From an uncultured Muribaculaceae bacterium (GTDB lineage Bacteria > Pseudomonadota > Alphaproteobacteria > Rs-D84), in NCBI GenBank assembly GCA_964576135.1, contig CAZNTZ010000001.1, positions 5,792 to 69,791 of the forward strand: a DNA stretch of 64,000 bases. The letters run 5' to 3'. The position numbers and the translations under genes were made by a program. A model generated the notes under the pieces. The model was not told the DNA's origin, made no database searches, and saw only the letters and a list, made by a program, of their open reading frames with translations. Positions 185 to 64,000 of this stretch are shown here, piece by piece. The stretch's first letter is position 1, and each line of letters starts with the position of its first letter.

Positions 185-3100
185 TCAGAATCTGTATCCA
201 CCGCCCAATCTAATGTTATGCGATTGAATATTTCCATTTGTTTGGAAACGGTAATCCAGTCCCAACTGTCCCCCGCGAGCAGATATAATATCAATACCAG
301 TACCAATATTAAACCACAGCGCGCCATTACCAGTGTCGTATTTAGAGAAATCAACAGCATCGATAAATTTATAGTCTATTGTTTTCTTTGCACCTAACAG
401 GTTGTATTCAAATCCAGTTGTAATTTTTGGAAGCAATTGTAACCATGGTGTGGCGTATATTCTTTTCTGAGCAGCCAAACTGTAACCAGGCGTTAATGAT
501 ATAAATCCATCTTGTTTTGCGTTCATATAATCCTGCAGATTCAATGTAAATCCAGAATTATAACCACCGCGCAGATATGCGTTTCCAACAATATATTTAT
601 TCAACAAATCATGCATTATTCCAAATTCACCAGATACAGACATAGCAGTTGTTGTGCCATCAGTATCTTTAAAGAATGTTTGGCTGCGCGATACATCAAT
701 TGAATGATTATAAAAATTCAAATTGCTGTAAAAGCTGGATTCTTGGGACAATTTTCTGATCAAGTATGCACCTAAGCTGAAACTTGTATCTTTGGCTTCG
801 GTTCTGACAGCGCCATATTGCATAACATTTGCATAAGATAAATCAACATTCATATCAGCATTACTTGTCAATTGTGCAAAACGAGCGGTAACACCCATAA
901 TTGTGTCTTTGCTGTGTTGCCAATCCATACCCGCAGAAACAGACAAACGATTACCATTTATATCCTCTGAATCATTAAAAAAGCTTACATTTGTATCGAC
1001 CCAGACTTTTTTCAAATTACGTGTACGGTTTAATAAAAATTCATCTACTAATTTATTTTCAAATTGACGATAATTCATACGTTCATCTAAATCGATTTGC
1101 ATTGCAACTGCGCCTGCTTCTATTGGTTCAAACATTTTTGCAAACCGTGCCATATACAATGTTTGTTTTGAATTATCGCTGTTGTAATATTCCATACGAT
1201 TATAAATTTCATTTCCTATTTGTTGAAAATCACTGCCCAAAAACGCACTTGGCATTGCTTCTATTGGGGTATTATTTACAAAACCATTTTTAATTAATAC
1301 ACCTTCAACCAAATTATCTAATGCCCCAGCCGAAGCATATTCATTTGCAGTATGGGTAGGTTCTTTGCCAACAATTGGTTGTATCTTAAATATTGATATT
1401 GGACCACCAAATCGTGGATCAAACACGATATAAATACTGTCGTTTAATCCGTCACCATCTACGTCTTTTACACTAAGATATGCAGGAACAGCACCAGATG
1501 CAGACAACGATTGATCAGCACGGAAAGCATCAAGATAATTAAAACATCTGCTGCCATCAAGGTTACAGAACATAACGTTCAAATTACGTGTACCAATTTG
1601 TAAATCTTGAATTTCTGTTGCTCTTAATAAATATACAGCATCACCAGAATCAACAATATTGGTCAAATACAATCCGATACTGCCATCACTTAAACCTGTA
1701 CCGCCTGGTGCTGTGGCAGTATTATTAGTAATTAAATTACCAGAAACATTTACGATTGCTGTACCGCCAGATATATTTCCATTTGAAATATCTATTGTTG
1801 AATTATGTGATGAATTTGACAACCCGACCAGCAATTGGCTTGTTGAATTAAAGTAATAATCACCAGTAATATTCATCGATCCAACGCCAAGGAATTTAAC
1901 CCCACCCGAAACATCGCCCATAATATTTGCATTTATAAGCCCTGATCCAGTTGCACTATAAATATATGTATCGCCTGCACTGATGATACCATTTCCTGTA
2001 ATATTTAAATTATCTGTGTGCAATTCCAGTGTTCCACCTGTTTGATATATTCCACCAGAACCAATATTGATTGTTGGTGATCTGAGCACTAAATCACCAC
2101 CAGAATTTAAAATTTGATATACGCTGATGCCTGTATTTGCACTTACTAAACCTGTGCCCGATTCGTTTGTCAGACGGTTCCCAATGTTGATTTGGTTAGC
2201 ATTCATAAACAAATCACAATTTGTACCGTTTGTGCAAAGCGCACCCAAAGCACTGTTACCAGTATTCCAAACAATATCACTAATATTTATTGTCCCAGTA
2301 TTGAGTGCGGATGAAACAAACAAATTTCCATTATTCAAAATCGAATATATATTTAATGAATTTGTACCTGAAAATATAATATCTCCGAAATTAACAATAT
2401 TTCTTACACTGAGTGTTGTACTTGAAGATATATTTGATACAGCCCCGACCGCCCCAGCAGTTGCGGTCGAACCATCCAATGTTCCATTTAATAAATCATT
2501 ACTTAGAACTATGTTGCCACTCGAAGCAAATGTCATACTGTTACCAACGTTTATAACGTCACTTGTCGCGGTAATACTTGTCGCAGTAATTGACATATCT
2601 GAATTTACATTATCAATTGCGGCCCCAACATTACTTCCGTTATAAATATTTGTAAATGAAACACCACCATTTAGAACATTTAATGTATAACTCGCTAAGT
2701 GGCTTCCTATATCTCCGGAAACACCTGTTAAGGTTCCAGTTTCTAAATAAAAATTATTACTATTTGTCGCAGAACCAATATCTATACCACCAACCAAAGT
2801 TGTTGCACCCGAAACATAACCTGTGAAATTACCATCAAGATACAAACCAGCGGCAGTTAAACTTGCCACTTTGGCAGAACTTGGGCCACCTATTTGTAAA
2901 GAATTACCAGTTTCAATACTTATACCCCCAGTAATGTTTCTTGCACCAGATGCGGCCAAAGTAGCAGAACTTGCAAAATAAACATCTCCGTCTGTTCCAA
3001 CATCTGTATGTCCAATAAATAAATCGCCAGCAGCACTAAGTCCACCTGCACCGAACCCAAAGTTAGCGCCATTACCAAAAACGATTCGGCCACCAGAATT

Positions 3101-3847
3101 AGATGTCACACCGGCTGATGAGAAATTTTGACCGATACCAGGGTTGATAGTAATTGCATTATCACTGTTTGTAACAGTTCCACCAACAGTAATGCCAGCG
3201 CCGCCCGTCAAAGTAATTCCACCATTACCAGAATTTGAAACATTACCCAGGATATTTATTTCGTTTGTTGCAGTAAGAGTTGTCGGCACAGGATCTGGGT
3301 CACCAATCCCGGTTGGAAAATCATATGTAACGCTTAAATTATTTACGCGTATAAAATTACTTGAATTTATAACTGCTTGACCAGATGAAATTGTAATATC
3401 GCCAATTGTTACACCCGTTGCACCGGTAACAGAAAGCATTTCTGCAGAATCAACCAATGATATATTTGATGTTTCAATACTGTTTGTCGAAGCATTCAAA
3501 ACAATATCACCCAGATGCGAAGTTATTGGGTTACGAACATATATATTACCACCTGTTGCAGACAGACTTACCGATCCGCCAAAATTTTCAATTGTACCAA
3601 TAACATCAATATCGCCAGCAGTCGAAGTTAAATTTACTTCGAAAAGACTTTTAAAAGTATTATTGCTGACAGTCAAACCATCTGAAGTATTATTCCAGAT
3701 ATAATCAGTACTGATTCCAGTGTTAGACTGGCTGTAAACAGGCGAAGTTGGCGGTTCTGCAACATCAACATTTACTATCCCAGCAGCGCGCGCAGCGCCA
3801 CATAAAGGCAAAACTGTAACCAAAATTGGTAAAATCTTTTTAAACAT
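185..3847 (-). CDS. autotransporter (type Va) outer-membrane protein with large Gly/Thr/Asn/Ser-rich beta-helical passenger
   Basis: 1220-aa ORF. N-terminal signal peptide MFKKILPILVTVLPLCGAARAAG. Long passenger full of G/T/N/S-rich repeats. C-terminal ~300 aa have alternating hydrophobic beta-strand character and end in ...GGGYRF, the aromatic C-terminal residue typical of OM beta-barrels and autotransporter translocators. Confidence 0.75.
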   Translation of the reverse strand: MFKKILPILVTVLPLCGAARAAGIVNVDVAEPPTSPVYSQSNTGISTDYIWNNTSDGLTVSNNTFKSLFEVNLTSTAGDIDVIGTIENFGGSVSLSATGGNIYVRNPITSHLGDIVLNASTNSIETSNISLVDSAEMLSVTGATGVTIGDITISSGQAVINSSNFIRVNNLSVTYDFPTGIGDPDPVPTTLTATNEINILGNVSNSGNGGITLTGGAGITVGGTVTNSDNAITINPGIGQNFSSAGVTSNSGGRIVFGNGANFGFGAGGLSAAGDLFIGHTDVGTDGDVYFASSATLAASGARNITGGISIETGNSLQIGGPSSAKVASLTAAGLYLDGNFTGYVSGATTLVGGIDIGSATNSNNFYLETGTLTGVSGDIGSHLASYTLNVLNGGVSFTNIYNGSNVGAAIDNVNSDMSITATSITATSDVINVGNSMTFASSGNIVLSNDLLNGTLDGSTATAGAVGAVSNISSSTTLSVRNIVNFGDIIFSGTNSLNIYSILNNGNLFVSSALNTGTINISDIVWNTGNSALGALCTNGTNCDLFMNANQINIGNRLTNESGTGLVSANTGISVYQILNSGGDLVLRSPTINIGSGGIYQTGGTLELHTDNLNITGNGIISAGDTYIYSATGSGLINANIMGDVSGGVKFLGVGSMNITGDYYFNSTSQLLVGLSNSSHNSTIDISNGNISGGTAIVNVSGNLITNNTATAPGGTGLSDGSIGLYLTNIVDSGDAVYLLRATEIQDLQIGTRNLNVMFCNLDGSRCFNYLDAFRADQSLSASGAVPAYLSVKDVDGDGLNDSIYIVFDPRFGGPISIFKIQPIVGKEPTHTANEYASAGALDNLVEGVLIKNGFVNNTPIEAMPSAFLGSDFQQIGNEIYNRMEYYNSDNSKQTLYMARFAKMFEPIEAGAVAMQIDLDERMNYRQFENKLVDEFLLNRTRNLKKVWVDTNVSFFNDSEDINGNRLSVSAGMDWQHSKDTIMGVTARFAQLTSNADMNVDLSYANVMQYGAVRTEAKDTSFSLGAYLIRKLSQESSFYSNLNFYNHSIDVSRSQTFFKDTDGTTTAMSVSGEFGIMHDLLNKYIVGNAYLRGGYNSGFTLNLQDYMNAKQDGFISLTPGYSLAAQKRIYATPWLQLLPKITTGFEYNLLGAKKTIDYKFIDAVDFSKYDTGNGALWFNIGTGIDIISARGGQLGLDYRFQTNGNIQSHNIRLGGGYRF

Positions 3848-9400: not shown

Positions 9401-9993
9401 TCGTTTGGAATTCTTGTAATTCTGGATTCTTCGTGACTGGTGCGGAATCCATCAAAGAAATGCATGAATGGAACGCGTGCACGTAATGTTGATGCATGTG
9501 CAATAGCGGCCAAGTCATGTGCTGCTTGAACATTATTAGATGACAACATTGCAAATCCAGTCTGGCGGGCAGACATAACGTCACTGTGATCACCAAATAT
9601 AGAAAGAGCGTGTGTAGCAAGAGCGCGCGCGGCGACATGCATAACAAAAGGTGTATGTTCGCCCGCAATTTTATACATATTTGGAATCATAAGTAATAAA
9701 CCTTGCGACGCAGTAAATGTTGTCGCCAAAGATCCCATTTGCAAAGCACCGTGCAATGCGCCTGCTGCTCCACCTTCGGATTCCATTTCGATTACAGATG
9801 GTTGAACACCCCAAATATTCTTTTTATGCTGAAAAGCCCATTCATCAGCCAATTCACCCATTGTGCTTGATGGAGTAATTGGAAAAATCGCCATGAATTC
9901 GCTCAGTCTGTATGCGACATCGGCTGCAGCCCAGTTACCATCTGTTATTAAATGCTCGGGTTTACTTTTACTTTGTTCTTGTTCTTTTTTCAT
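6463..9993 (-). CDS. nifJ: pyruvate:ferredoxin (flavodoxin) oxidoreductase, single-chain homodimeric type
   Basis: 1176 aa. N-terminus ITDGNWAAADVAYRLSEFMAIFPITPSS. Two 4Fe-4S ferredoxin motifs (CIQCGKCSMLCP, CTGCEVCAKNCP). TPP-binding GGDGWAYDIGYGGLDH. Confidence 0.9.
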   Translation of the reverse strand: MKKEQEQSKSKPEHLITDGNWAAADVAYRLSEFMAIFPITPSSTMGELADEWAFQHKKNIWGVQPSVIEMESEGGAAGALHGALQMGSLATTFTASQGLLLMIPNMYKIAGEHTPFVMHVAARALATHALSIFGDHSDVMSARQTGFAMLSSNNVQAAHDLAAIAHASTLRARVPFMHFFDGFRTSHEESRITRIPNEVLHELVTDELVLENRARGMSPNNPTIRGTAQNPDVYFQGREAANPLYNEIPKIVAETMEKFSKLTGREYKLVEYIGDPKAENVVVAMGSAIDTITETLPYLPSKTGLIAVHLYRPFPTDAFIEALPKTVKRIAVLDRTKESGATGEPLYQDIVSTIHAARLDIDIVGGRYGLGSKEFKPRDVKAIYEMLISGKPKHNFVVGIVDDLTNNSLPTDEFFTVEDKDVKTALLYGIGSDGTVGAVKNIVKIVGENSDLYPQSYAVYDSKKSGGLTVSHLRFGEKPIKSQYLVESADFIGISNFVIAQRFDIFKALKPGGSVMFNTGMKPEIAFANLPHEVQELLIRNHAHVYFLDANRGATELGLGNRINTFILLNFFNITQIIDPTKAADSAKAAIEKTYKKKGAEVVSANWAAVDRAGEFLTEYKLPSSPSNFAPDFIPAMTVNTPVEIAGTLGEMAGMRGDSLPVSTFKVDGMFGGGQYPVGTSKYEKRAISDSVATVDLDKCIQCGKCSMLCPHAAIRQNVLEKSKIGDYESVKFVDYKTPELGSDLEFTLNISPADCTGCEVCAKNCPVNALSMVPLNDTENQQKAFDEATNLPEFPREKLNLNLPKHLELTPHYFEFPGACAGCGETPYIKMLAHLFGDRMVVANATGCSSIYSGNLPTTPWTKDANGRGPAWSNSLFEDNAEYGLGMRMALNQRGAALKSLLFEVFDDEDDKIIEKILAEKDIEKQRENEKMIREKLAKIKNPRARIAESLADAIVDKSVWIIGGDGWAYDIGYGGLDHILHSGQNVNILVLDTEGYSNTGGQQSKATPFGASMKFAVGGKEMAKKDLGMIAMMSGAYVAQIALGSNQAQAIKAFREAEAFNGPSIILAYSPCIAHGYALNKGVEHQHQLVGTGAWPLYRFNPNLIEQGKNPLTMDSGPASVDLEDFLKTESRFSAAKAANPNFDKLVELAKNDNVYRRELKQHIANFAMQKKDS

Positions 9994-10198
9994 GTTTTAT
10001 TCTTTTTGTTTGTTTTTAAGTCGACAAAACCTGACACAGTTGTTGCCAACTTTGAATTGTTTTTTTTGGTGCGTAACCCACTAATTATAACCCACCAAAA
10101 GGTTAAAAACAAGAAAAGAGATAATTTATTGACAAAACAGTAATATACGACAAGTTTTATACCGCTATATTTTATAAAACATAGCGGTATAATTTATA

Positions 10199-20005: not shown

Positions 20006-20134
20006 CTTATTATTTCCCATATATTTAATTGACTGAATTATATCACAAAAATAAACCAAATAAAAATGAAATGCTTGGTAATAAACAGGTGTTTGATTCA
20101 AATAAAAAACCACCTTTCGGTGGTTTAATTTTTT

Positions 20135-21411: not shown

Positions 21412-22881
21412 TTATCTTTTTTTCCAAGCAAGACCAATGTACAAAATGCCAGCCAACCCCAGTGCACCGGCAAGTATGAATATATTCGTAATCATAGGTT
21501 GAATAAACCAAAGTCCAATTCCCATCAAAACTGACAGGACAAAAAATATTGCAACTGATTTTTTTGTTTTTGGTTGTAATTGGTACAATCCGTGCTTTTT
21601 ACATTCGCGTTGCAGCCACATATTTCTTAAATAACCTGCAACAACTGTGCCGATTGGAACTGCAAGATATCCAAAGAATTTAAATAATGAAATCATAACG
21701 ATTATACCTGTACCCAGCGCAAGCCCGCTTATTTTCACAGGTGCTTTGACATTTTGCGCAGCATACAAAGTTTTGGTAAATATTTGACTTGTGACCATTG
21801 CAGGCAAAGCAAGACATTGAATCATTATTGCTGCAACAATTCCTGTTGTCGCATCGTGTGTCCAATTTCCATATTCAAATAACAATCTTATTATTGGTTC
21901 GGCCAGGACAAATAATCCAACCATACATGGTAATGTCAACATCAACGAACTACGAATTGCAGAATTCTGTTGAACATAAACACTTCGCATATTCTTTGCT
22001 GTCAATGCATCTGAAATACTGGTCAGTAAAACAGTTCCAGCAGCCAACCCAATCATTCCAAATGGTAATTGAATCATTCTGTCTGAATAATAAAGCCATG
22101 ATACAGCACCACTTTGAAACGATGCAATCAACATTCCAACCAACACATTAACTTGGTAAAAACCGCTTGAAAGTAAACTTGCACCCATTCTGCGAAACAT
22201 TGTTCTTATTCTTGGGGTGAATTTTGGGCGAATAAATCTTAAACCAAATTTGTGTCTCTTTATTCTGGCCCATAAAATCCAAAACTGAAAAATACCAGAA
22301 ATAAGTACTGCGATTGACATAATATGAAGCGCGTACATATTTGCATCTGATGCTATAAATAATCCGCCAATCATAAATATATTCATCAAAACTGGCATAG
22401 CTGCTACAACGGCGAATTCAGAAAAAGCGTTTAATATGGCGGCCAGGAAACTTGCCCCACAGATAAATATGACATAGAAAAACATTATTCTGGCAAAATA
22501 TGTTGCCATATCTAACTTCGCAGCATCAAACCCAGGTGCGGTCCCAAGCATAATAAATGGCATAAGAATTTCAGCTATAATTGTGATGCCAAGTAATATG
22601 GCCATTAGCCATGAAAAAGCGTTGCTTGCGAATTGGGTTGCAGTTGGTTTATCTGATTTATGTTCTGAAAACATCGGAACGAATATTGATGCAAGTGCCC
22701 CCTCGCCCAGCAAGTCTCTCAACATATTTGGTAACTTGAACGCGGCCAAGAAAATATCGGACAAGCGACCCACACCCAGAACGCGACCAATCATCATATC
22801 ACGAACAAACCCTAATACTCTTGATATTGCGGTCCAAATGCCAACTTTAAAGATGTGTTTTGACAATGACATAATTTGCAT
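21412..22881 (-). CDS. murJ: lipid II flippase MurJ (MviN)
   Basis: 489 aa polytopic. N-terminus ...IWTAISRVLGFVRDMMIGRVLGVGRLSDIFLAAFKLPNMLR matches MurJ. Confidence 0.85.
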   Translation of the reverse strand: MQIMSLSKHIFKVGIWTAISRVLGFVRDMMIGRVLGVGRLSDIFLAAFKLPNMLRDLLGEGALASIFVPMFSEHKSDKPTATQFASNAFSWLMAILLGITIIAEILMPFIMLGTAPGFDAAKLDMATYFARIMFFYVIFICGASFLAAILNAFSEFAVVAAMPVLMNIFMIGGLFIASDANMYALHIMSIAVLISGIFQFWILWARIKRHKFGLRFIRPKFTPRIRTMFRRMGASLLSSGFYQVNVLVGMLIASFQSGAVSWLYYSDRMIQLPFGMIGLAAGTVLLTSISDALTAKNMRSVYVQQNSAIRSSLMLTLPCMVGLFVLAEPIIRLLFEYGNWTHDATTGIVAAIMIQCLALPAMVTSQIFTKTLYAAQNVKAPVKISGLALGTGIIVMISLFKFFGYLAVPIGTVVAGYLRNMWLQRECKKHGLYQLQPKTKKSVAIFFVLSVLMGIGLWFIQPMITNIFILAGALGLAGILYIGLAWKKR

Positions 22882-33989: not shown

Positions 33990-34817
33990 ATGACTTGGAC
34001 AATATTGGTTCTGGTCGTGGCGATTGCCTTATACGTGTTCGGCGGCATGCTGTTCAAACACGATGGTAAATCCGTTCCGGCTTGGAAAATCTATGCTAAC
34101 AAATCCGCAAAGTTGGTTTCGATCATTTTGTTGGTCGTTGGTGTAAATCGTTTAGGACTTGGCACAACTTATTATTTGACACAAAGCAACCCAGCAATTT
34201 TGCAAGAAATGGCCCAAGGTATGCAAGCTCAAAGAACAGAAGATTCAAGCCGTAATATCAAAAAGTTCGTCCGTAAAAATATGGATATGATGATTAAAGA
34301 TGCACCAGTTTTGGGTAATACAAATGCCACAAAAACTATCTTTCTCTTCTCTGATTATTCATGCCCATACTGCCGCCGCGTTCACAGTGAATTGTCACGT
34401 GTCTTGGCGGAACGTAACGATGTTCGCATTGTTTTGAAGAACTTTTCTATTCATGGTCCATTATCTGATGCACCAGCCCGCGCTGTTATCGCTGCAAAAT
34501 TGCAAAGCAATGACAAAGCCGCAAAATTGGATGCATTGTTGATGGGTAAAGAATACTTCTCACAAAACGACATGAAAGACCAAGCAAAACTTGGTGCCAA
34601 AGTTGAAAAGAATGTTTTAGCAATGGCCAAAGAAGCAGGTCTTAACGTTGATCAGTTAAAGAAAGACATGAATGGTGAAGTTGTAGCACGTGAATTGGGT
34701 AATGTTCGCGCATTGGCAGAACAATTCCAAATCGGTGGTACACCATACTTGATCATCCAAGACAAAGCGTTCCCAGGTGCAATACCTTACGAACAAATTG
34801 TTGATGCATTGAAATAA
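33990..34817 (+). CDS. membrane-anchored DsbA-family thiol:disulfide oxidoreductase
   Basis: N-terminal TM (ILVLVVAIALYVFGG). Thioredoxin-fold active site CPYC (...FLFSDYSCPYCRRVHSE...). Confidence 0.75.
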   Translation: MTWTILVLVVAIALYVFGGMLFKHDGKSVPAWKIYANKSAKLVSIILLVVGVNRLGLGTTYYLTQSNPAILQEMAQGMQAQRTEDSSRNIKKFVRKNMDMMIKDAPVLGNTNATKTIFLFSDYSCPYCRRVHSELSRVLAERNDVRIVLKNFSIHGPLSDAPARAVIAAKLQSNDKAAKLDALLMGKEYFSQNDMKDQAKLGAKVEKNVLAMAKEAGLNVDQLKKDMNGEVVARELGNVRALAEQFQIGGTPYLIIQDKAFPGAIPYEQIVDALK

Positions 34818-44387: not shown

Positions 44388-45383
44388 TCATACAACTTCG
44401 GTAACTGCACGCAAAGATCCATCGCGTGAAAGTTGAACAACATGTAATTTCTTTTTCATTTCGGCAATCAATTCTGAACGTTCATATGCTGGTTGGGTAT
44501 GCAAAATTCTGTCAGAAAAAGCCTCGTACGCAGCCTCTGCACTTTCAGCATGAATAGTTGTATAAAAATGATCGTGACCAGTGCCCATCATTTCCCACAA
44601 AACACTGGCGTTATCGGTTGAAACTTCACCACCTATGATAACGTCTGGTGTCATACGAACAATTAAATCAAGAAGTCGCGCATAATTAAAATTGTTATTT
44701 TGTTCTGTACGTGACAACACAAAATGCACACGATTCTTTTGTGGAACTTTGATTTCACGCGCGTCTTCGATTGTTATTACACGCGCATTTTGATCAATCA
44801 ATGTTAGAATATGATTCAAGAACAAAGTCTTTCCAGTGCTGGTTGCACCAGATATTAATATAGGACTGCCATCATTTATTGCTGTCATTAAACGATCATA
44901 CGGATCATCTGGCTTTTTCTTGGAGCGTTGTTTTATACTTAATAATTTTTGACCACGTTTAAGGTGGTAATTTTCAAAAGTTATATCTGGTGCCGCACCG
45001 CCGCGAATATTTAATGCTATGCCACCCGTCAGATCACGATCATCATACATAACATTAGGACCCGCAATCGCACTGAAACGATGATTGCCAGGCAGAGTAG
45101 CATAAACAACTGGCATTCCACGAATTGGGTCAAAAGGTCTTTCGTAAACATTAGCAACACAATGAATCAAATCCATCAAATATTGTTTCGATAATTTTTC
45201 GGAATTATACGCAACCCAAGGCTTTGCAGGACCATGTAAACGCATCCATACTTCGCCCGCATGGTTTATAGCAATCTCTTCCACGAATGAAGGTGTAAAA
45301 AATTCTTCCAATGGTTTGATTAAAGTGTCTAATACTATATCGCTCATGTAACATATTTTATCAGAAATTCTGTATTGAATCAA
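44388..45383 (-). CDS. VirB11/TrbB-family type IV secretion/conjugation ATPase (stand-alone)
   Basis: 331 aa. Walker A ISGATSTGKT. ...VITIEDAREI... (VirB11 IEDxxEL-like). ...RMTPDVIIGGEVSTDNA... (VirB11 RxRPDRIIVGExR-like). Confidence 0.7.
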   Translation of the reverse strand: MIQYRISDKICYMSDIVLDTLIKPLEEFFTPSFVEEIAINHAGEVWMRLHGPAKPWVAYNSEKLSKQYLMDLIHCVANVYERPFDPIRGMPVVYATLPGNHRFSAIAGPNVMYDDRDLTGGIALNIRGGAAPDITFENYHLKRGQKLLSIKQRSKKKPDDPYDRLMTAINDGSPILISGATSTGKTLFLNHILTLIDQNARVITIEDAREIKVPQKNRVHFVLSRTEQNNNFNYARLLDLIVRMTPDVIIGGEVSTDNASVLWEMMGTGHDHFYTTIHAESAEAAYEAFSDRILHTQPAYERSELIAEMKKKLHVVQLSRDGSLRAVTEVV

Positions 45384-57586: not shown

Positions 57587-58453
57587 AATCACGCCGTTTA
57601 TTAAGTTTATATCACTGGGGATTATTGTTTCAATTTTTGTTTTTCTGAATACTGCCAATGGTAATACTGCACCTGCGCGCGCGCCATCCATCCACTTTGG
57701 ATTATCTGGCATCAATGCCCGCAAGTCATCCATAGTCATTTCAAAAAATATACGCATAGTCCCAGCAATAAATCCAATCAATGAAACTTGGAACGGATGA
57801 TTTGCATCATCAAACATTGTGTTTTTTTCCAAGGGGTATCCAGACATTTTTTCAAAACGCAATTCGCCTGTGAACAATGCAAAATCATAATCAGTATCAA
57901 AATTTACATCTGAAATTTTTGATGCACAGAAATCTTCGATTCTATTCAATTCAACTGCTGCGACTGATTCATTGATTTCTGGAAATGCAGCATTTATATC
58001 TGCGACACCAATTCGTAATAATTGCGTCGTCGTTGTGCCATCGCGGCGATATGTAACCAATTCTGTTGTTTTGCCACCCATATTGATGACGAGTACTTTC
58101 TTACCGCCATAATTTAATTCGGATGCACGTTTCAGATATGCACCTTCTTGTTCGTGGGTTATAATATTAAAATCAAAACCTAAACGATGAACAAATTCAG
58201 AACGAATATCTTGGACTTGGCTGTCTGGGATTTCACGCCAAATTCCGGTTGCAAAAGTTTTTGTATCATTAGGCAAATTCAAAGACAATAGATGTTCAAC
58301 CAATGCGTCAATCTTGGCCGGTGAAACACCAGTAATTTGGTCGAAACCTTCTTTGAAAAACAGAGATTTTTCTTTGACCAGATCCAAGTGACCATCGCTT
58401 GCGCTGTATGTCTTTACGGTGCCAGATCCGACATCAACATAATACTTTGTCAT
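57578..58453 (-). CDS. Ppx/GppA-family phosphatase-like protein (ASKHA fold), short form
   Basis: MTKYYVDVGSGTVKTY (phosphate-1 motif DxGxxxxK). About 290 aa, consistent with the N-terminal two-domain ASKHA core. ORF track starts at TTG 58519. Confidence 0.5.
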   Translation of the reverse strand: MTKYYVDVGSGTVKTYSASDGHLDLVKEKSLFFKEGFDQITGVSPAKIDALVEHLLSLNLPNDTKTFATGIWREIPDSQVQDIRSEFVHRLGFDFNIITHEQEGAYLKRASELNYGGKKVLVINMGGKTTELVTYRRDGTTTTQLLRIGVADINAAFPEINESVAAVELNRIEDFCASKISDVNFDTDYDFALFTGELRFEKMSGYPLEKNTMFDDANHPFQVSLIGFIAGTMRIFFEMTMDDLRALMPDNPKWMDGARAGAVLPLAVFRKTKIETIIPSDINLINGVIEK

Positions 58454-58529
58454 GGGAACCCCCGTGGTTAGTATGTTGAACTTACGTGAGAGTTTAATAA
58501 AACCAATACAAAAATTCAAGCATATTATT

Positions 58530-58560
58530 AAATAAAAAACGCGCCTTTACTTGGCGCGTT
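58530..58560 (-). terminator. terminator downstream of the 853-aa Cys-rich gene
   Basis: aaataaaaaACGCGCCtttacttGGCGCGT. T-run on the minus strand. Confidence 0.6.
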
Positions 58561-58568
58561 TCATTTTA

Positions 58569-61130
58569 TTACATTGCTATGTCTTCGCATTTTTCAACTG
58601 GATCAGATGATGTACAGTTGGTTTTGCGACTGTCCCACAATCCAAATAGTCCGCGACTGCCACTGGTCTTGCAATCTTGTTTTACAGTCGATTTACATAA
58701 ATGACAGTTTCTGGCGTCACGGTTAAATATCGCCCAAGTTTCAGTTGTTACACCACCGGCAGTTACTTTGAATTTATAACCTTCTTGTTTAAGTCCACCC
58801 ATTTGGCTTTGTCCATGACCACCGGTCATTAATTGATCAGTTGTCAGTCCTGCACCAACGTCATATGAAATCGCGTACGGCGGTGTCAGCGGGGTTGATA
58901 ATGGATCTGGCGCATCACCAGATGTAGTGGTAGTTGCGCCACTTGATTCTGCCATTTTCTGACACATGTATTGTGCTAAATCTGCTGACGCACCCTTGGT
59001 TGCATCTGAAATTGCCTTATTAACCTTTTTATTATAATTTTCATTTGCCTGACGTAATGCAGCAATTGCAATTTGCATTTTAACACTGTTCAAAAGGTTT
59101 GGAAAACGTGCACTTGTCTTTTCGGATTTACCAGTGACTTGTTCCAAACTGCGTCCACTGATGCAATATTGAATTTTTGGATCTTGTTCAATCATTTGGG
59201 TTACACGATTGATTGTTCCAGCAATATTGTTTAACTCTTCTTCAACAGATGTGATTATACCGGCGGCATTTGCCACAGATGTATTTTCTCTGCGAACCTT
59301 TGCAATATATTCTTCAACCCCAAGTTGTCCAGGCGCAAGAATCGTAGTGGTACCATCTTCGGCAACGTCTTTGGTTTTTCCAGAGGCATCACCCATTTTG
59401 ATTGAACCAAAAGAAATCATTCCAGTAACGCGATAAATTGTTCCATCTTTCTGGGACTTTATTGAACTTGTACCAATTGTATCATCGCTGGCAAATTTAT
59501 TACAATCTGTCGTTGAACCACAAACTTCTTCCATTTTTGTGCTGACCAGGTTCTGGCAATTTTCAAGTGCAGAATTATCAATATTCAAATACAGACCCAT
59601 CAACATTGAATCCAAATCATCCATAGCAAACTGTGGGTTATTTTGTTTGCAGACAACCAATTTATCAATTGGGCAAATATCATGAATATATTTATAATCC
59701 ATACCGACACATTTTTCGAAATTTGAACCGCAACGATCATCAGATGTAAAACAATCTTTGACTTCTTGGGTGCAACGATCGACACGCATAGATTTTAATT
59801 TATCTGTGACATAACCCCAAATCAAAGGCTCCATACGTTCGCAAGCGTCAATTTGAACTTTACAAAAGCTGCGCGCCATTTCTGGACGTGATAAACACGA
59901 ATCCATTGTTGCTACACCTTTGCCTTCGATATCATCTTTACATGCAGTTTGTATACATGCAGAAATATCAGTCAAACATGATTGACGACGTTTTGATTCA
60001 TTATTAAGTTCAGCAATTTTCAAATCTGGTGCAACTTCTCGGATAAAATCTGACCAAACATTATCACGCACAGCAACGCATTGATCTAAAACTTTTTCAC
60101 AAATATTACGTTTTGAATCTAAAGATTCCATTGTTGAATCTGCTATTTCAAACTTTGCAACTGTCTGAATATTTGAACCAGCAGTGCTGACAGTTTTAGA
60201 TTGCATATTTTCATATGCAACTTCGCCAACACATTTTGACCAATCAGATCCGCAAACATCGGTACCATTCATACATTTTCTGAATTCCAACATACATTGT
60301 CCGCGATCAAATTTATTTGATGATTCAAACGAAGTAAGTCTTGCATCGCGAATACTTTTTTGTGCATTAGCAAAAACCGTATTCACAGATTCCTGCATTT
60401 TTGCAATAGTATTTCCAAATGCACGACAATCGTTTCTGACCTGTGTCGTGTAAAGCTGGGTTAACAGATTTGCATCAGAATTGCATGAATCAGGCATACG
60501 CGAAATACATAAATCACGCGCCCCAACTTGCAAAGCATCACCTGTTTTAGTGCTGAGATTTTGTTCATTTTCAGTAAAAATATCTTCAGATTCATCGGGA
60601 GAAGATGTATTCCACATAGAAAGCAAATTTGCTTTTTTATTTTTTGCTTCGGTATCTTCCAGAGAAATAACGTTTCCCGAAGAATCATAACTGCGCTCTC
60701 CACCGAAAACAATATCTGCCTTGGCACCGGCTTGGATTTTTTCGACTTCTACTGTGCTTAATGTTTGTGCATTGGCTAACTTTGAATTCATTTCAGAAAT
60801 CTGTTTTTTATAACCAACACCTTCGTCAGAACATGCGCATGTACCACCATCCAAAGTTACTGGACCGTCTGGAATATTCAATACAGTACTGTCGCCTGCG
60901 CAAAATTGATCCATACAACCAAAGTAAGAATTATAACAATCTTGGGAATAAATATTCGATGCTTCTACCTTGGCACGAACACCGGTCGCATTTCCAACAA
61001 CACTAACTGTCTTTGCACCACCAGTTCTGGCCGCAATGGTTGCCGCAGAAACTGATAATGGCACAATACAAGACACAGACAATGCCAATATCCAAATATT
61101 TAATTTTGCTTTTATCATTAATCTCTCCAC
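58569..61130 (-). CDS. giant secreted cysteine-rich protein, paralog A (853 aa), unknown family
   Basis: Signal peptide MERLMIKAKLNIWILALSVSCIVPLSVSA. More than 40 Cys. Shares conserved blocks with the upstream paralog (CMDQFC, CACSD, GAKA(D/N)(I/L)VFG, VLDQC(V/M)AVRD, RNCH(L/I)C, C-terminal CED(I/V)xM). Confidence 0.6.
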   Translation of the reverse strand: MERLMIKAKLNIWILALSVSCIVPLSVSAATIAARTGGAKTVSVVGNATGVRAKVEASNIYSQDCYNSYFGCMDQFCAGDSTVLNIPDGPVTLDGGTCACSDEGVGYKKQISEMNSKLANAQTLSTVEVEKIQAGAKADIVFGGERSYDSSGNVISLEDTEAKNKKANLLSMWNTSSPDESEDIFTENEQNLSTKTGDALQVGARDLCISRMPDSCNSDANLLTQLYTTQVRNDCRAFGNTIAKMQESVNTVFANAQKSIRDARLTSFESSNKFDRGQCMLEFRKCMNGTDVCGSDWSKCVGEVAYENMQSKTVSTAGSNIQTVAKFEIADSTMESLDSKRNICEKVLDQCVAVRDNVWSDFIREVAPDLKIAELNNESKRRQSCLTDISACIQTACKDDIEGKGVATMDSCLSRPEMARSFCKVQIDACERMEPLIWGYVTDKLKSMRVDRCTQEVKDCFTSDDRCGSNFEKCVGMDYKYIHDICPIDKLVVCKQNNPQFAMDDLDSMLMGLYLNIDNSALENCQNLVSTKMEEVCGSTTDCNKFASDDTIGTSSIKSQKDGTIYRVTGMISFGSIKMGDASGKTKDVAEDGTTTILAPGQLGVEEYIAKVRRENTSVANAAGIITSVEEELNNIAGTINRVTQMIEQDPKIQYCISGRSLEQVTGKSEKTSARFPNLLNSVKMQIAIAALRQANENYNKKVNKAISDATKGASADLAQYMCQKMAESSGATTTTSGDAPDPLSTPLTPPYAISYDVGAGLTTDQLMTGGHGQSQMGGLKQEGYKFKVTAGGVTTETWAIFNRDARNCHLCKSTVKQDCKTSGSRGLFGLWDSRKTNCTSSDPVEKCEDIAM

Positions 61131-61150
61131 AAAATAATTTTATCTGTGTT

Positions 61151-63334
61151 TTACATATTCACATCTTCGCAAGATTCTATTTCTTGACAGAAAGTTTGCT
61201 TACCACCTGTGAATAATCCACCAATTGCGCCTGCAACACCGCCGATCAGACTGCCCCAACCTGGCAAAGCAGCTGTACCCATCGCTGCACCACCGGCTGC
61301 CATTTTTGCGGCAGATGCTGCTTTTGATTCGCCACCTTGTTCACAAACTTTTTGAACACGACAAATATGACAATTACGAAGCGATGGTTCAAATGAAACA
61401 GATGTTACCCAAACGCCCGGATTGTTTCCACCGCGATCACCTTTGTTTGAATCTTTTTCTGACGCAAATAAATCATCACAAGCAGCACGTGCTGATTCTA
61501 CATCTTCTTGTTTTGCAAGCTCTGCTTTGCGCGACACATATGCACGTTCGGCACGTTTTTCAGCATTAAATTTTGCCAATGTTTTCGCAGTATTAAATAT
61601 ACTTACACCCAATTTATTTCTGCCAGATGGCTTATTTGTATCACTGCATGCAGCAACCGTTTGGTCTTTTTCAAACTGAACAAAAAATTCATCAACTGCG
61701 GCATCTGCATTTGTGCGCCAATCAACCTTGTCTGTTGATTTTTTCATTGCAGCAATTTGACCGTCTGCCGGCAAACATGCCATATCTGTACCACAAACAC
61801 GACCCAAAGCTTCTGCAAAATGATTAACACAACCAACCATCATTTGGTAATTCATCTGGAGCAATGCTGCAGAAACAATAACATCAAATTGATTTTGTCC
61901 ACGGCAAGATGGAAACATATTTTGTGGGCACATTGCAATAATGTCTTTAGAGCTTTTACCAACACATTCAGCTTTGTCGTAATTTACACCACATTTATCT
62001 TGTAAACATTTATCCACATCGTTCTGGCAGAATTGAATTCTTAAAAACCCAAGTCTGTCACCAACAGAATTTTTAATTCCTGGAACCATTGATTCACACT
62101 CTTCAATCACAGGACAAATTCCTGACGCAATATTAACATTATCAAGACATTGTGAATTTGTGTCCGTTGAACATGAATTTTCTAAACAATCTTGTATACG
62201 TGCAAAGCAAGTTCCACGACGATTCTGATCTGCGAATTTTGCAGCATTTTCTAAAACCAGTTTCGATTCGTCTTGCCAATCTTTCTTAACATAGTCGCGC
62301 ACAGCCATACATTGATCCAAAACATTATCACACGCATTGCCGCGTCTTGCCAATAAATCAGTATCAAGGCAATTTTCAAAATTCGCGCCACAACCACCTT
62401 TATCTGCAACACAAGATTTATAAGCGATCAAACATTCACCACGATTATATTTATTAGTAGTATCAAGCATCGCAAGACGTGCTTCACGCACAGCTTTTTC
62501 TGCGGCTGTCTTATTATCGCTTGCTATTTTTTTCTGATCATCAAGGAATGTGCTGAAAGTTTTGCAATCGCTTGTAACCTCACGACTATAAAGTAATTCT
62601 TCCATATTAGCGTCAGATCCACATGCTGTCAGACGATCTTTACATGATTCCGCAGCCATATTATAAAGGTTTGTACCAATATACATATCCGAATCGAGAC
62701 TTTCTCCATTATCAGAACTGCCGCCGCCAACCCAATCAGCCAAACTCATTCCGGTGACTTTGGATTGTGCCTTGGCTTTATCACTTGTTCCAAAAACTAA
62801 ATTTGCTTTGGCCCCAAGTTTTTCACGTTCAACACCTTCGGTATAAAGTTTATCAGCAGATGATTGAATATCGCTGATTTCTTTAATTCTTGATTTTGAT
62901 TGAATAATATTGTCAGAACAAGCGCAACGGGCACCTTCGGAATCATCAAGCAAACAAAATTGATCCATACAACTGCGATAAGCATCGCGGCAACCCCCAC
63001 CCGTTGTTGTACCAGATTGTGTTGTTTGTGTATTTATTGTTGTTCCTGTCGCAGTGGACACAGATGCAATTACCCCAGGCTGTGCAGTTGTCGTTGTTAC
63101 AGAACCTTCGACAGTACCATCAGGCAAAGTACATTTTCCCGCAACCACAACTGAATTAGAATTTTTGCATGCAGGCGCAGATGGAACACCGCCAGCGGCA
63201 CGGGTTGATGCCTGCGAAATTCGAAGCCCTACACGACTTGAATCAATTGCGTCAGCGCGACTTGCCGCATTTGCAGAAGATATATAAAACAAACTGACCA
63301 GCGTAAATAACGCCGCAAAGAATTTCTTTGTCAT
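61151..63334 (-). CDS. giant secreted cysteine-rich protein, paralog B (727 aa), unknown family
   Basis: Signal peptide MTKKFFAALFTLVSLFYISSANA. Thr-rich linker. More than 40 Cys. C-terminal Gly/Ala-rich hydrophobic stretch then CQEIESCEDVNM. 20-nt gap to paralog A, so probably co-transcribed. Confidence 0.6.
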   Translation of the reverse strand: MTKKFFAALFTLVSLFYISSANAASRADAIDSSRVGLRISQASTRAAGGVPSAPACKNSNSVVVAGKCTLPDGTVEGSVTTTTAQPGVIASVSTATGTTINTQTTQSGTTTGGGCRDAYRSCMDQFCLLDDSEGARCACSDNIIQSKSRIKEISDIQSSADKLYTEGVEREKLGAKANLVFGTSDKAKAQSKVTGMSLADWVGGGSSDNGESLDSDMYIGTNLYNMAAESCKDRLTACGSDANMEELLYSREVTSDCKTFSTFLDDQKKIASDNKTAAEKAVREARLAMLDTTNKYNRGECLIAYKSCVADKGGCGANFENCLDTDLLARRGNACDNVLDQCMAVRDYVKKDWQDESKLVLENAAKFADQNRRGTCFARIQDCLENSCSTDTNSQCLDNVNIASGICPVIEECESMVPGIKNSVGDRLGFLRIQFCQNDVDKCLQDKCGVNYDKAECVGKSSKDIIAMCPQNMFPSCRGQNQFDVIVSAALLQMNYQMMVGCVNHFAEALGRVCGTDMACLPADGQIAAMKKSTDKVDWRTNADAAVDEFFVQFEKDQTVAACSDTNKPSGRNKLGVSIFNTAKTLAKFNAEKRAERAYVSRKAELAKQEDVESARAACDDLFASEKDSNKGDRGGNNPGVWVTSVSFEPSLRNCHICRVQKVCEQGGESKAASAAKMAAGGAAMGTAALPGWGSLIGGVAGAIGGLFTGGKQTFCQEIESCEDVNM

Positions 63335-63479
63335 CCCACCTATCCTGTATACTTATTATTTATTTTATCAAAGTTTTCAAAATTGGGCAACGATAAAATT
63401 CACCCCCAAAGCGGAATAAACCTGATTTCTAAAAAATTCTTGCATTTAACTAATTTTGCCGGTATAGTTTCCCAGCATT

Positions 63480-63962: not shown

Positions 63963-64000
63963 AATTCATTATTTTTATTGTTATGCTTGTTGTTGACCAG

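Follow-up and report, generated by a model that had tools for sequence, protein, structure and literature searches.

The 64,000-nucleotide stretch analysed here (contig CAZNTZ010000001.1 of an uncultured alphaproteobacterium of the order Rs-D84; hereafter the window) carries, towards its end, two adjacent minus-strand genes, which we call B and A in their order of transcription and which encode large cysteine-rich proteins. An earlier note on this DNA, made from its letters, had described them as a tandem pair of secreted proteins and as a diversifying surface or secreted module. The evidence assembled below strongly indicates that A and B are core genes under strong purifying selection, belonging to a family specific to Rs-D84. 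It points as strongly to their products being Sec-exported, elongated and mostly helical proteins, whose hairpins are stapled by disulfides in a pattern repeated about four times.

The two genes and their transcription unit

Both open reading frames (ORFs) are present on the minus strand where they had been placed (Table 1), and the two proteins are homologous beyond composition, since in a compositionally adjusted BLASTP comparison they share 27% identity across ~530 residues (E=4e-49). They are thus co-oriented paralogs, as proposed, and each of the colinear motifs listed in the earlier note is found in both: CxxxYxxCMDQFC, CACSD, GAKAxxVFG, CxxxxxxCxxxxxxCGxx[FW]xxC, CxxVLDQCxAVRD, RNCHxC and the terminal CED[VI]xM. 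The database contains proteins identical to B (P0001) and to A (P0121, 849 amino acids (aa)). Because a GGAGAG Shine-Dalgarno sequence precedes ATG 61118 by 4-6 nucleotides (nt), and because P0121 is itself 849 aa long, the true start of A is almost certainly this ATG and not GTG 61130. The gap between B and A is therefore 32 nt, instead of the 20 nt first given. Likewise, of the sizes that had earned the two proteins the name "giant" (853 and 727 aa), that of B stands and that of A becomes 849 aa, and both are better described as large.

Since no terminator was found in the 32-nt gap and a strong one follows A, the two genes look like a single bicistronic unit closed by that terminator. The promoter-like site upstream of B is weak evidence for a promoter, such sites being no more numerous in this region than in shuffled sequence, and an Rfam scan returned only tRNAs. 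The guanine-cytosine (GC) content of the region resembles that of the rest of the window, and a recent horizontal transfer of the two genes was rejected on this ground.

Table 1. Positions in the window of genes B and A, their parts, flanking signals and the DsbA gene; residue numbers of A follow the 849-aa protein
Feature	Position	Strand	Description	Basis
Promoter-like site upstream of B	63362..63390	minus	TTGCCC-17-TAAAAT, extended TG	consensus scan
Gene B	61151..63334	minus	727 aa, Cys-rich, predicted exported; 38 Cys, 36 invariant in orthologs	ORF
B signal peptide	63266..63334	minus	aa 1-23, predicted cleavage between ANA and AS	sequence features
B Thr/Ser/Gly-rich low-complexity N-terminal linker	62999..63265	minus	aa 24-112	
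B Cys-rich helical core	61640..62998	minus	aa 113-565; 30 invariant Cys, column-for-column with A	Cys columns, paired loss, AlphaFold2 helices
B C-terminal beta module	61154..61414	minus	aa 641-727; RNCHIC 61361-61378, terminal CEDVNM 61154-61171	AlphaFold2 strands 641-667, 713-726
B glycine-zipper-like hydrophobic hairpin	61202..61312	minus	aa 675-711, AAKMAAGGAAMGTAALPGWGSLIGGVAGAIGGLFTGG; candidate membrane anchor	
Gene A	58569..61118	minus	849 aa, Cys-rich paralog, predicted exported; ATG 61118 likely start, ORF extends to GTG 61130 (853 aa)	
A signal peptide	61044..61118	minus	aa 1-25, predicted cleavage between VSA and AT	
A Cys-rich helical core	59487..60950	minus	aa 57-544	Cys columns, AlphaFold2, paired loss
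A-specific middle region	58944..59486	minus	aa 545-725; small beta elements and long helices	AlphaFold2, conservation
A C-terminal beta module	58572..58886	minus	aa 745-849; RNCHLC 58695-58712, terminal CEDIAM 58572-58589	AlphaFold2 strands 751-848
A short hydrophobic loop SRGLFGLW	58635-58658	minus	within C-terminal beta module	
Intrinsic terminator directly after A	58536..58562	minus	GAAACGCGCC...GGCGCGTTTT then T-run	
DsbA-family thiol:disulfide oxidoreductase	33990..34817	plus	CPYC motif, N-terminal membrane anchor, ~100-aa extension	Pfam DSBA, E 1.9e-19
Predicted disulfides of A			61-212, 68-204, 275-347, 282-340, 381-426, 388-419, 393-408, 449-490, 456-482, 533-539	
Predicted disulfides of B			115-238, 122-231, 301-342, 308-335, 376-413, 383-407, 388-396, 436-477, 443-469, 514-520	

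An ancient pair in a conserved cluster

Homologs of each of the two proteins make up more than 950-1200 clusters (53-70% identity), all of them annotated "hypothetical" and drawn from metagenome-assembled genomes (MAGs) that carry the labels Rickettsiales bacterium, Alphaproteobacteria bacterium or Candidatus Enterousia. Among their sources are termite guts, rumen, digesters and the faeces of many animals and humans, the hosts being as diverse as termites, ruminants, birds and humans. Scanning the species genomes of GTDB gave 487 stretches encoding relatives, and an exhaustive hidden Markov model (HMM) search of 1.84 billion cluster representatives gave 942 clusters at 50% identity with E <1e-3 (279 at <1e-30). 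Every named family member belongs to an alphaproteobacterial MAG, and this bears out the suggestion that the family is specific to a lineage of AT-rich Alphaproteobacteria and has no described relatives. Ca. Enterousia falls within the GTDB order Rs-D84 and is suspected to depend on partner organisms (PMC12306168); genomes of the order measure 0.7-1.0 Mb, with ~850 genes (PMC12306168), and contigs bearing these genes are up to 716-933 kb long.

Across 80 species-level loci the gene order hardly varies: S, C, infA, then B and A. S is a small secreted Cys-rich protein (~240 aa, 9-10 Cys), and C is a third paralog (E ~1e-16 to A) of 665-1013 aa (median 840) with 23-53 Cys (median 31). A follows B in 75 of the 76 species-level loci with enough sequence, at a median spacing across loci of ~23 nt, while C lies upstream in 63/63 loci and S in 62/63. 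The closest relatives (L084 and L085) have the order C-S-infA-secG-B-A-(sod)-priA-miaA-gap, and the window is syntenic with L084, with secG and a tRNA-Arg upstream of B and priA, miaA and gap downstream (as read from their N-termini). Neither tblastn nor HMM search found S or C inside the 64,000 nt; synteny with L084 and L085 suggests that infA, S and C lie just beyond position 64000. A and B both show the features by which we define the family, that is, a Sec leader, a colinear core of ~30 Cys (CxxxYxxCMDQFC...CACSD...) and their position in the cluster C-S-infA-secG-B-A.

Because the order of the cluster is conserved across species loci, A and B must be regarded as ancient members of a conserved four-gene cluster, of which they make up one half, and their duplication is older than the radiation of Rs-D84. 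The picture of a simple tandem duplication thus gives way to that of an old pair accompanied by a third paralog and by protein S. Selection tells the same way. Estimated by the pairwise NG86 method on ortholog pairs of 75-97% identity, the median ratio of nonsynonymous to synonymous substitution rates (dN/dS) is 0.094 for B (313 pairs), 0.093 for A (96 pairs), 0.126 for C (8 pairs) and 0.085 for S (14 pairs). With dN/dS ~0.09 in both genes, 36 invariant Cys in each ortholog group and an order kept in 75/76 loci, the word "diversifying" has to be abandoned.

Four loci deserve mention in their own right. L041 (JAISKV010000001.1) is the only one without A in the 8 kb after B, and its C and S genes are co-oriented with B rather than divergent. 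In a termite-gut MAG (L001) a gene for a PF05635 "23S rRNA intervening sequence protein" (9648-10013) is inserted between B and A and runs into the start of A. In another MAG from a termite gut, more divergent (L086, 14293-21011), there is a single family member of 998 aa, located after rplQ, and near it are several other large ORFs rich in Cys (748 aa with 29 Cys, 349 aa with 22 and 598 aa with 25) that match neither the family HMM nor Pfam. Finally, OZ246409.1 (L061/L002; chromosome-level, 716,531 bp) carries a complete S-C-B-A cluster in alphaproteobacterial synteny under the title "uncultured Muribaculaceae bacterium"; this label is probably wrong, and the sequence may be a complete Rs-D84 genome.

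Architecture of the two proteins

Signal peptides and cleavage sites were read heuristically from sequence features. On that reading both N-termini have a basic n-region, a hydrophobic h-region of 14-16 residues and an AxA-type site (MTKKFFAALFTLVSLFYISSANA followed by AS in B, MIKAKLNIWILALSVSCIVPLSVSA followed by AT in A), so that both proteins look as if they carry, as the earlier note had said, classical leaders of the Sec/signal peptidase I type. The signal-peptide block of B retains its hydrophobicity among orthologs at an identity of 0.23. The Thr-rich linker and the Gly/Ala-rich hydrophobic stretch that had been reported in B are both present. The linker is variable (conservation 0.11-0.42), and the predicted local distance difference test score (pLDDT) of residues 19-110 stays under 50. 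Close to the mature N-terminus the linker has a short conserved motif, RxGVxR (consensus), and it also holds an extra Cys pair, C56 and C68, that is not conserved.

More generally, N-terminal linkers vary among orthologs, while the Cys-rich core and the C-terminus are conserved at 60-90%; within A, conservation is highest (0.90 identity) in the block IYRVTGMISFGSIKMGD of its middle region. The AlphaFold2 models consist mostly of long helices (B: pLDDT 70, predicted template-modelling score (pTM) 0.40; A: pLDDT 76, pTM 0.46), and each of them ends in a small beta module.

This C-terminal module is shared by A and B and consists of a beta hairpin with RNCHxC, a hydrophobic loop and a final strand that ends in CED(I/V)xM at the carboxyl terminus. 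The terminal motif had been singled out as special, and rightly so, since CED[IV]xM closes all 83 of the B orthologs and 76 of the 78 A orthologs; it is absent from the C and S proteins. The loop of B takes the form of a Gly/Ala-rich hairpin of 37 residues, which every one of the 83 B orthologs retains, with the GxxxG-rich consensus GGxxAGAAxGTxxxPGWGTAIGGVVGAVGG, whereas its counterpart in A is short. Glycine-zipper profiles (Gly-zipper_OmpA, _YMGG and _Omp) are the only recurrent Pfam signal in the family, with E 3.5e-5 to 1e-3 in some members and E 0.018 for a consensus-like ortholog segment of the hairpin, which we infer to be a candidate membrane anchor. The C-terminal strands of A and B are polar and contain Cys, and are not amphipathic membrane strands. 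A trimeric-autotransporter or other autotransporter adhesin was rejected, given these polar strands and the lack of any YadA-type or beta-barrel match in Pfam. The known C-terminal sorting signals (PEP-CTERM, GlyGly-CTERM, MYXO-CTERM, the C-terminal domain of type IX secretion and LPXTG) gave no NCBIfam match, and the tail that follows the hydrophobic segment of B is acidic and contains Cys (...FCQEIESCEDVNM), unlike the basic tail of sorting signals.

The earlier statement that the proteins fall into no recognisable family holds, in that neither Pfam nor NCBIfam gives anything above threshold for A, B or their C-terminal pieces. The best Pfam match of A and B is DUF7628 (E 0.045; 14.5 bits against a cutoff of 27), and NCBIfam gives nothing below E 0.8. 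A Pfam scan of 46 diverse family members produced no consistent family, and C, S and the other Cys-rich ORFs of related loci have no Pfam or NCBIfam match above threshold. A profile search of PDB sequences yielded chance matches only (E >=0.25); the best Foldseek matches have E 0.7 against PDB and E 0.2 against the viral models of BFVD. In the literature we found no description of these proteins, and nothing that links Rs-D84 to "cysteine-rich". The family thus appears to be undescribed and to have no detectable relatives by sequence or predicted fold.

Cysteines lost in pairs and a proposed disulfide map

The claim of more than 40 Cys in each protein was an overcount: B has 38 and the 853-aa ORF of A has 37, the mature proteins having 38 and 36, respectively. 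In the same way the last Cys spacing, given as C-x6-C, is in fact C-x5-C in B and C-x8-C in A. Cys makes up 5.2% of the residues of B and 4.3% of those of A, versus ~0-2% in most other ORFs of the window. In each ortholog group 36 Cys are invariant, and 32 columns are common to both groups; the extra Cys of A sits in its signal peptide, and the two of B (56 and 68) form a pair. The number of conserved Cys is even in every module, and the total of 36 would correspond to ~18 disulfides per protein.

The partners were sought in the pattern of Cys loss among 132 divergent members with adequate coverage, not of the C type, aligned to the family profile (in the numbering of the 849-aa A). All 30 core Cys are kept in 104 of these sequences, and members short of core Cys mostly lack exactly two, in recurring pairs: 393+408 (6 representatives and, independently, all C-type proteins), 456+482 (5 representatives), 381+426 (4), 533+539 (3), 61+212 (1) and 282+340 (1, and all C-type proteins). 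The pairs 381-426, 456-482 and 61-212 had been predicted from Cys spacing before the table of losses was computed; with ~15 nested pairs among 435 possible ones, three hits out of three would be expected by chance at ~1e-5. Five of the six lost pairs (the short-range 533/539 being the other) are compatible with nested antiparallel hairpins and lie on helices of the models.

The underlying logic is that of a "twin CX6C", in which two Cys at a distance of seven residues on one helix pair with two others, at a distance of seven or eight, on the helix running antiparallel to it. For A we infer on this basis the nested staples 275-347 with 282-340, 381-426 with 388-419, 449-490 with 456-482, and 61-212 with 68-204, to which a third, local disulfide would be added within modules (289-296, 393-408 and 463-470). 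In module M3, for instance, 381-426 and 393-408 are backed by paired loss, and 388-419 follows from nesting. Because Cys are lost in pairs and their counts per module are even, the data argue for disulfide partners instead of metal-cluster ligands, and for an oxidising extracytoplasmic location. The disulfide-rich nature attributed to A and B is thereby supported, both by paired loss across the family, which marks the partners, and by the presence of a DsbA gene in the window.

The repetition of the module itself is another matter. When the profiles of the four Cys modules were compared with one another, the similarity was weak in four of the six pairings (E ~1e-3, probability 9-17%), while M1-M3 and M1-M4 gave E 0.14-0.22 and a probability below 1%; these statistics being weak, the idea of a repeat rests on Cys spacing and pairing. 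Cys parity across the family (423 even versus 136 odd) is weak evidence as well, the orthologs being non-independent and the cleavage heuristic crude. In the small cluster protein S (L004-L083) an odd mature Cys count is usual, 9 in 55/65 with the heuristic cleavage site; this might reflect a free thiol available for an intermolecular disulfide, or a misassigned cleavage site.

Envelope setting and other genes of the window

The DsbA-family gene of the window is 66% identical to a DsbA-like gene near the cluster in L002. It is not adjacent to A and B, and we presume that its product would be the oxidant for the Cys-rich proteins. The window also encodes BamD, RlpA, OmpA-like and porin-like proteins, and the genes for BamD, RlpA, an OmpA-like protein and DsbA therefore indicate a normal diderm envelope with an oxidising periplasm. 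The ORF at 21412-22881 reads as MurJ (from its N-terminus, without a family scan), and RodA, MreB and MrdA are present in Rs-D84 (PMC12306168).

Several neighbours may interest students of this lineage. The ORF at 18647-20113 (minus strand, 488 aa) matches the Pfam family Pom (Protochlamydia outer-membrane porin, E 1e-11), here in an alphaproteobacterium; the Pom porins were described in chlamydial symbionts (PMC3561449). Two ORFs with signal-peptide-like N-termini and no Pfam match, one of 170 aa with 15 Cys (8.8%; 51194-51706, minus strand) and one of 194 aa with 9 Cys (4.6%; 13476-14060, plus strand), have no detectable relation to S and suggest that the exported proteins of the lineage tend to be rich in Cys. 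A 1220-aa protein (185-3847, minus strand) likewise has a signal-peptide-like N-terminus and no Pfam match, and is a further large orphan exported protein by this reading. A type II/IV secretion ATPase of 331 aa (44388-45383, minus strand; T2SSE, E 1e-21) adjoins a small lipoprotein-like ORF and could be part of a pilus or of a secretion system with a bearing on export or partner contact. The gene directly downstream of the terminator of A (57578-58519, minus strand) encodes a 313-aa protein that resembles Ppx/GppA phosphatases too weakly to pass the thresholds (E 1.3e-4 in Pfam; E 9.5e-7 in NCBIfam, well short of its cutoff), and lies outside the conserved cluster in other genomes.

Interpretation

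We think that A and B, together with C and S, are best viewed as a DsbA-oxidised structural assembly of the envelope or cell surface, in which B is anchored in a membrane and A joins it through its C-terminal module; we hold this view tentatively, and put its chances at somewhat below even. A and B are very probably exported through Sec and oxidised in the periplasm, a DsbA homolog being retained there; according to this proposal, the four proteins would then form a disulfide-stabilised assembly. B would be held by its glycine-zipper hairpin in a membrane, probably the outer one, and A would attach to B, or to a common partner, through the shared module RNCHxC...CED[IV]xM-COOH. The product might be a protease-resistant, mechanically robust layer or appendage for a minimal-genome cell exposed in the gut lumen, functionally analogous, and not homologous, to the Cys-rich envelope complex of chlamydiae. 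A core structural role is suggested because dN/dS is ~0.09, because the cluster is near-fixed across species, and because it has been kept in genomes of 0.7-1.0 Mb.

Several points weigh against this proposal and should be acknowledged. No route across the outer membrane was identified, and A and B could be purely periplasmic. Extracellular disulfides are unusual in the reducing lumen of an anaerobic gut, and Rs-D84 reportedly has no respiratory chains (PMC12306168), which leaves the re-oxidation of DsbA unaccounted for. A chlamydia-like role in replacing peptidoglycan is not needed, since peptidoglycan genes (MurJ, RlpA, RodA, MreB, MrdA) are kept. As for the anchor, the B segment of the window matches the glycine-zipper families PF13488, PF13441 and PF13436 at E 0.069-0.22 (~12-13.5 bits, cutoff 25). 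Lastly, the global confidence of the AlphaFold2 models is moderate (pTM 0.40-0.46), and the arrangement of domains and any oligomer drawn from them are unreliable.

The main rival to a structural assembly is an apparatus of attachment and acquisition, with A, B, C and S acting as rod-like adhesins that dock to partner microbes, protists or mucus in order to obtain metabolites. We consider it unlikely, if still worth serious attention. It agrees with the reported lack in Rs-D84 of amino acid, nucleotide and lipid biosynthesis and of standard transporters, and with the partner-dependent lifestyle proposed for the order (PMC12306168), as well as with the elongated rod shape predicted for the helical proteins, the mucin-like Thr-rich tether at the N-terminus of B and the hydrophobic loops at the tips of both C-terminal modules. 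On the other hand, a dN/dS of ~0.09 and orthologs in hosts from termite to human are atypical of adhesins that track variable ligands, neither Pfam nor NCBIfam reveals an adhesin domain, autotransporter or pilus signature, and the absence of an identified export route across the outer membrane weighs here too.

We give much less credit to a membrane-active or lipid-handling function, by which saposin-type modules would bind lipids and the zipper of B would insert into a foreign membrane, extracting lipids for a lipid-auxotrophic cell. Lipid biosynthesis is indeed reported as absent in the order (PMC12306168). The zipper of B weakly resembles class IIc bacteriocins, and the three nested disulfides of M3, as deduced from paired loss, recall the connectivity generally known from saposins. 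Yet there is no SapB match in Pfam, the modules (~46 residues) are shorter than saposin domains, and nested disulfides are expected in any stapled helical hairpin, so that the resemblance is generic. We are just as sceptical of the bolder idea that C, S, B and A make up a surface machine of an unknown type, whose zipper-tethered stapled rods would insert their C-terminal loops into partner membranes and extract lipids or metabolites; were it true, such a docking machine would be the key adaptation that allows Rs-D84 to live as parasites or epibionts.

A secreted toxin, bacteriocin or effector pair engaged in an arms race, as the term "diversifying effector" implies, is very improbable. The proteins are secreted, Cys-rich and orphan, and the Gly-rich segment of B is weakly like Bacteriocin_IIc (E 0.026), but an effector or arms-race role is unlikely for proteins so conserved, which are under purifying selection, occupy a fixed syntenic position beside infA and secG in nearly all species, have no immunity-like or mobile-element context and show a genome-typical GC content. 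Equally hard to credit is a periplasmic metal store, electron conduit or thiol buffer with Cys as metal, Fe-S or redox ligands: the high Cys density, the conserved C-H-x-C element of the C-terminal module and an anaerobic host, in which thiols would remain reduced outside the cell, speak for it, but specific long-range pairs that fit helix-hairpin geometry, even conserved counts per module (36 in total), the near absence of CxxC/CxxCxxC and the absence of CxxCH heme motifs, and the retention of DsbA speak against it, and the metal-cluster reading was rejected on pairwise Cys loss.

Returning to the structural assembly that we prefer, its interest extends beyond this locus. Rs-D84/Enterousia bacteria occur widely in the guts of humans, livestock, birds and termites, have genomes below 1 Mb and have never been cultured, and ~1% of such a genome is devoted to the large paralogs A, B and C and to S, the small exported protein rich in Cys. 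A and B are the most conspicuous lineage-defining exported proteins of this widespread minimal-genome lineage. Because of purifying selection, the fixed cluster and the lack of any described family or fold relatives, A, B, C and S are prime candidates for the structure that gives the lineage its distinctive envelope or its means of contacting partners. The disulfide map drawn from paired Cys loss is a concrete, testable structural hypothesis, and it raises a biochemical puzzle, that of an anaerobe without a respiratory chain making and keeping ~18 disulfides per protein. The proteins could also be used as lineage-specific markers or antigens to detect, image or enrich these bacteria.

Comparison with known systems

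The Hcp proteins of Helicobacter are secreted repeat proteins with helix pairs bridged by disulfides in 36-residue Sel1 repeats. A and B are also secreted bacterial proteins with disulfide-bridged helix pairs; they have no Sel1 or TPR match, and differ in module length, Cys spacing and size. Saposin-like proteins are made of helical modules locked by the nested disulfides C1-C6, C2-C5 and C3-C4, and module M3 of A and B is likewise predicted to be helical with three nested disulfides, a feature that by itself does not define a family; in contrast to saposins, A and B have no SapB match in Pfam and no such match among those listed by Foldseek, and their modules are shorter.

In proteins of the twin CX9C/CX3C (CHCH) type, found in the mitochondrial intermembrane space, each of two antiparallel helices bears two Cys at a fixed spacing, and a pair of nested disulfides between the helices holds the hairpin together. 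The spacing in A is of the same kind, CX6C facing CX6-7C (275/282 with 340/347, 381/388 with 419/426, 449/456 with 482/490). CHCH proteins are small, single-hairpin, eukaryotic and oxidised by Mia40, however, whereas the family of A and B is bacterial, measures 700-1000 aa, has about four hairpin modules, each with an extra loop disulfide, and gives no CHCH match in Pfam. As to the candidate anchor of B, its GxxxG-rich hairpin resembles the membrane-embedded zippers of glycine-zipper outer-membrane proteins (Gly-zipper_Omp, _YMGG and _OmpA; lipoproteins of the SlyB/Pcp type), the copy in the window scoring below the Pfam thresholds; a further difference is that the segment of B is inserted in a Cys-containing beta module ending a 700-aa helical protein, and that B lacks the lipobox of the SlyB/Pcp-type lipoproteins.

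The closest functional analogy is with OmcB and OmcA of chlamydiae, which are beta-rich proteins with Pfam families of their own. A and B have no such Pfam match, their models are predominantly alpha-helical, and the disulfides predicted in them are intramolecular helix staples, only intramolecular pairing being proposed. Moreover, Rs-D84 bacteria keep peptidoglycan-related genes (PMC12306168). With these differences in mind, the likeness lies in the general design: in chlamydiae, too, a reduced genome has neighbouring genes for a large and a small exported protein rich in Cys, the disulfides of OmcB and OmcA have been suggested to make the envelope more rigid, as we suggest for A and B, and the Cys-rich envelope proteins of chlamydiae depend on a retained DsbA system (PMC6752827).

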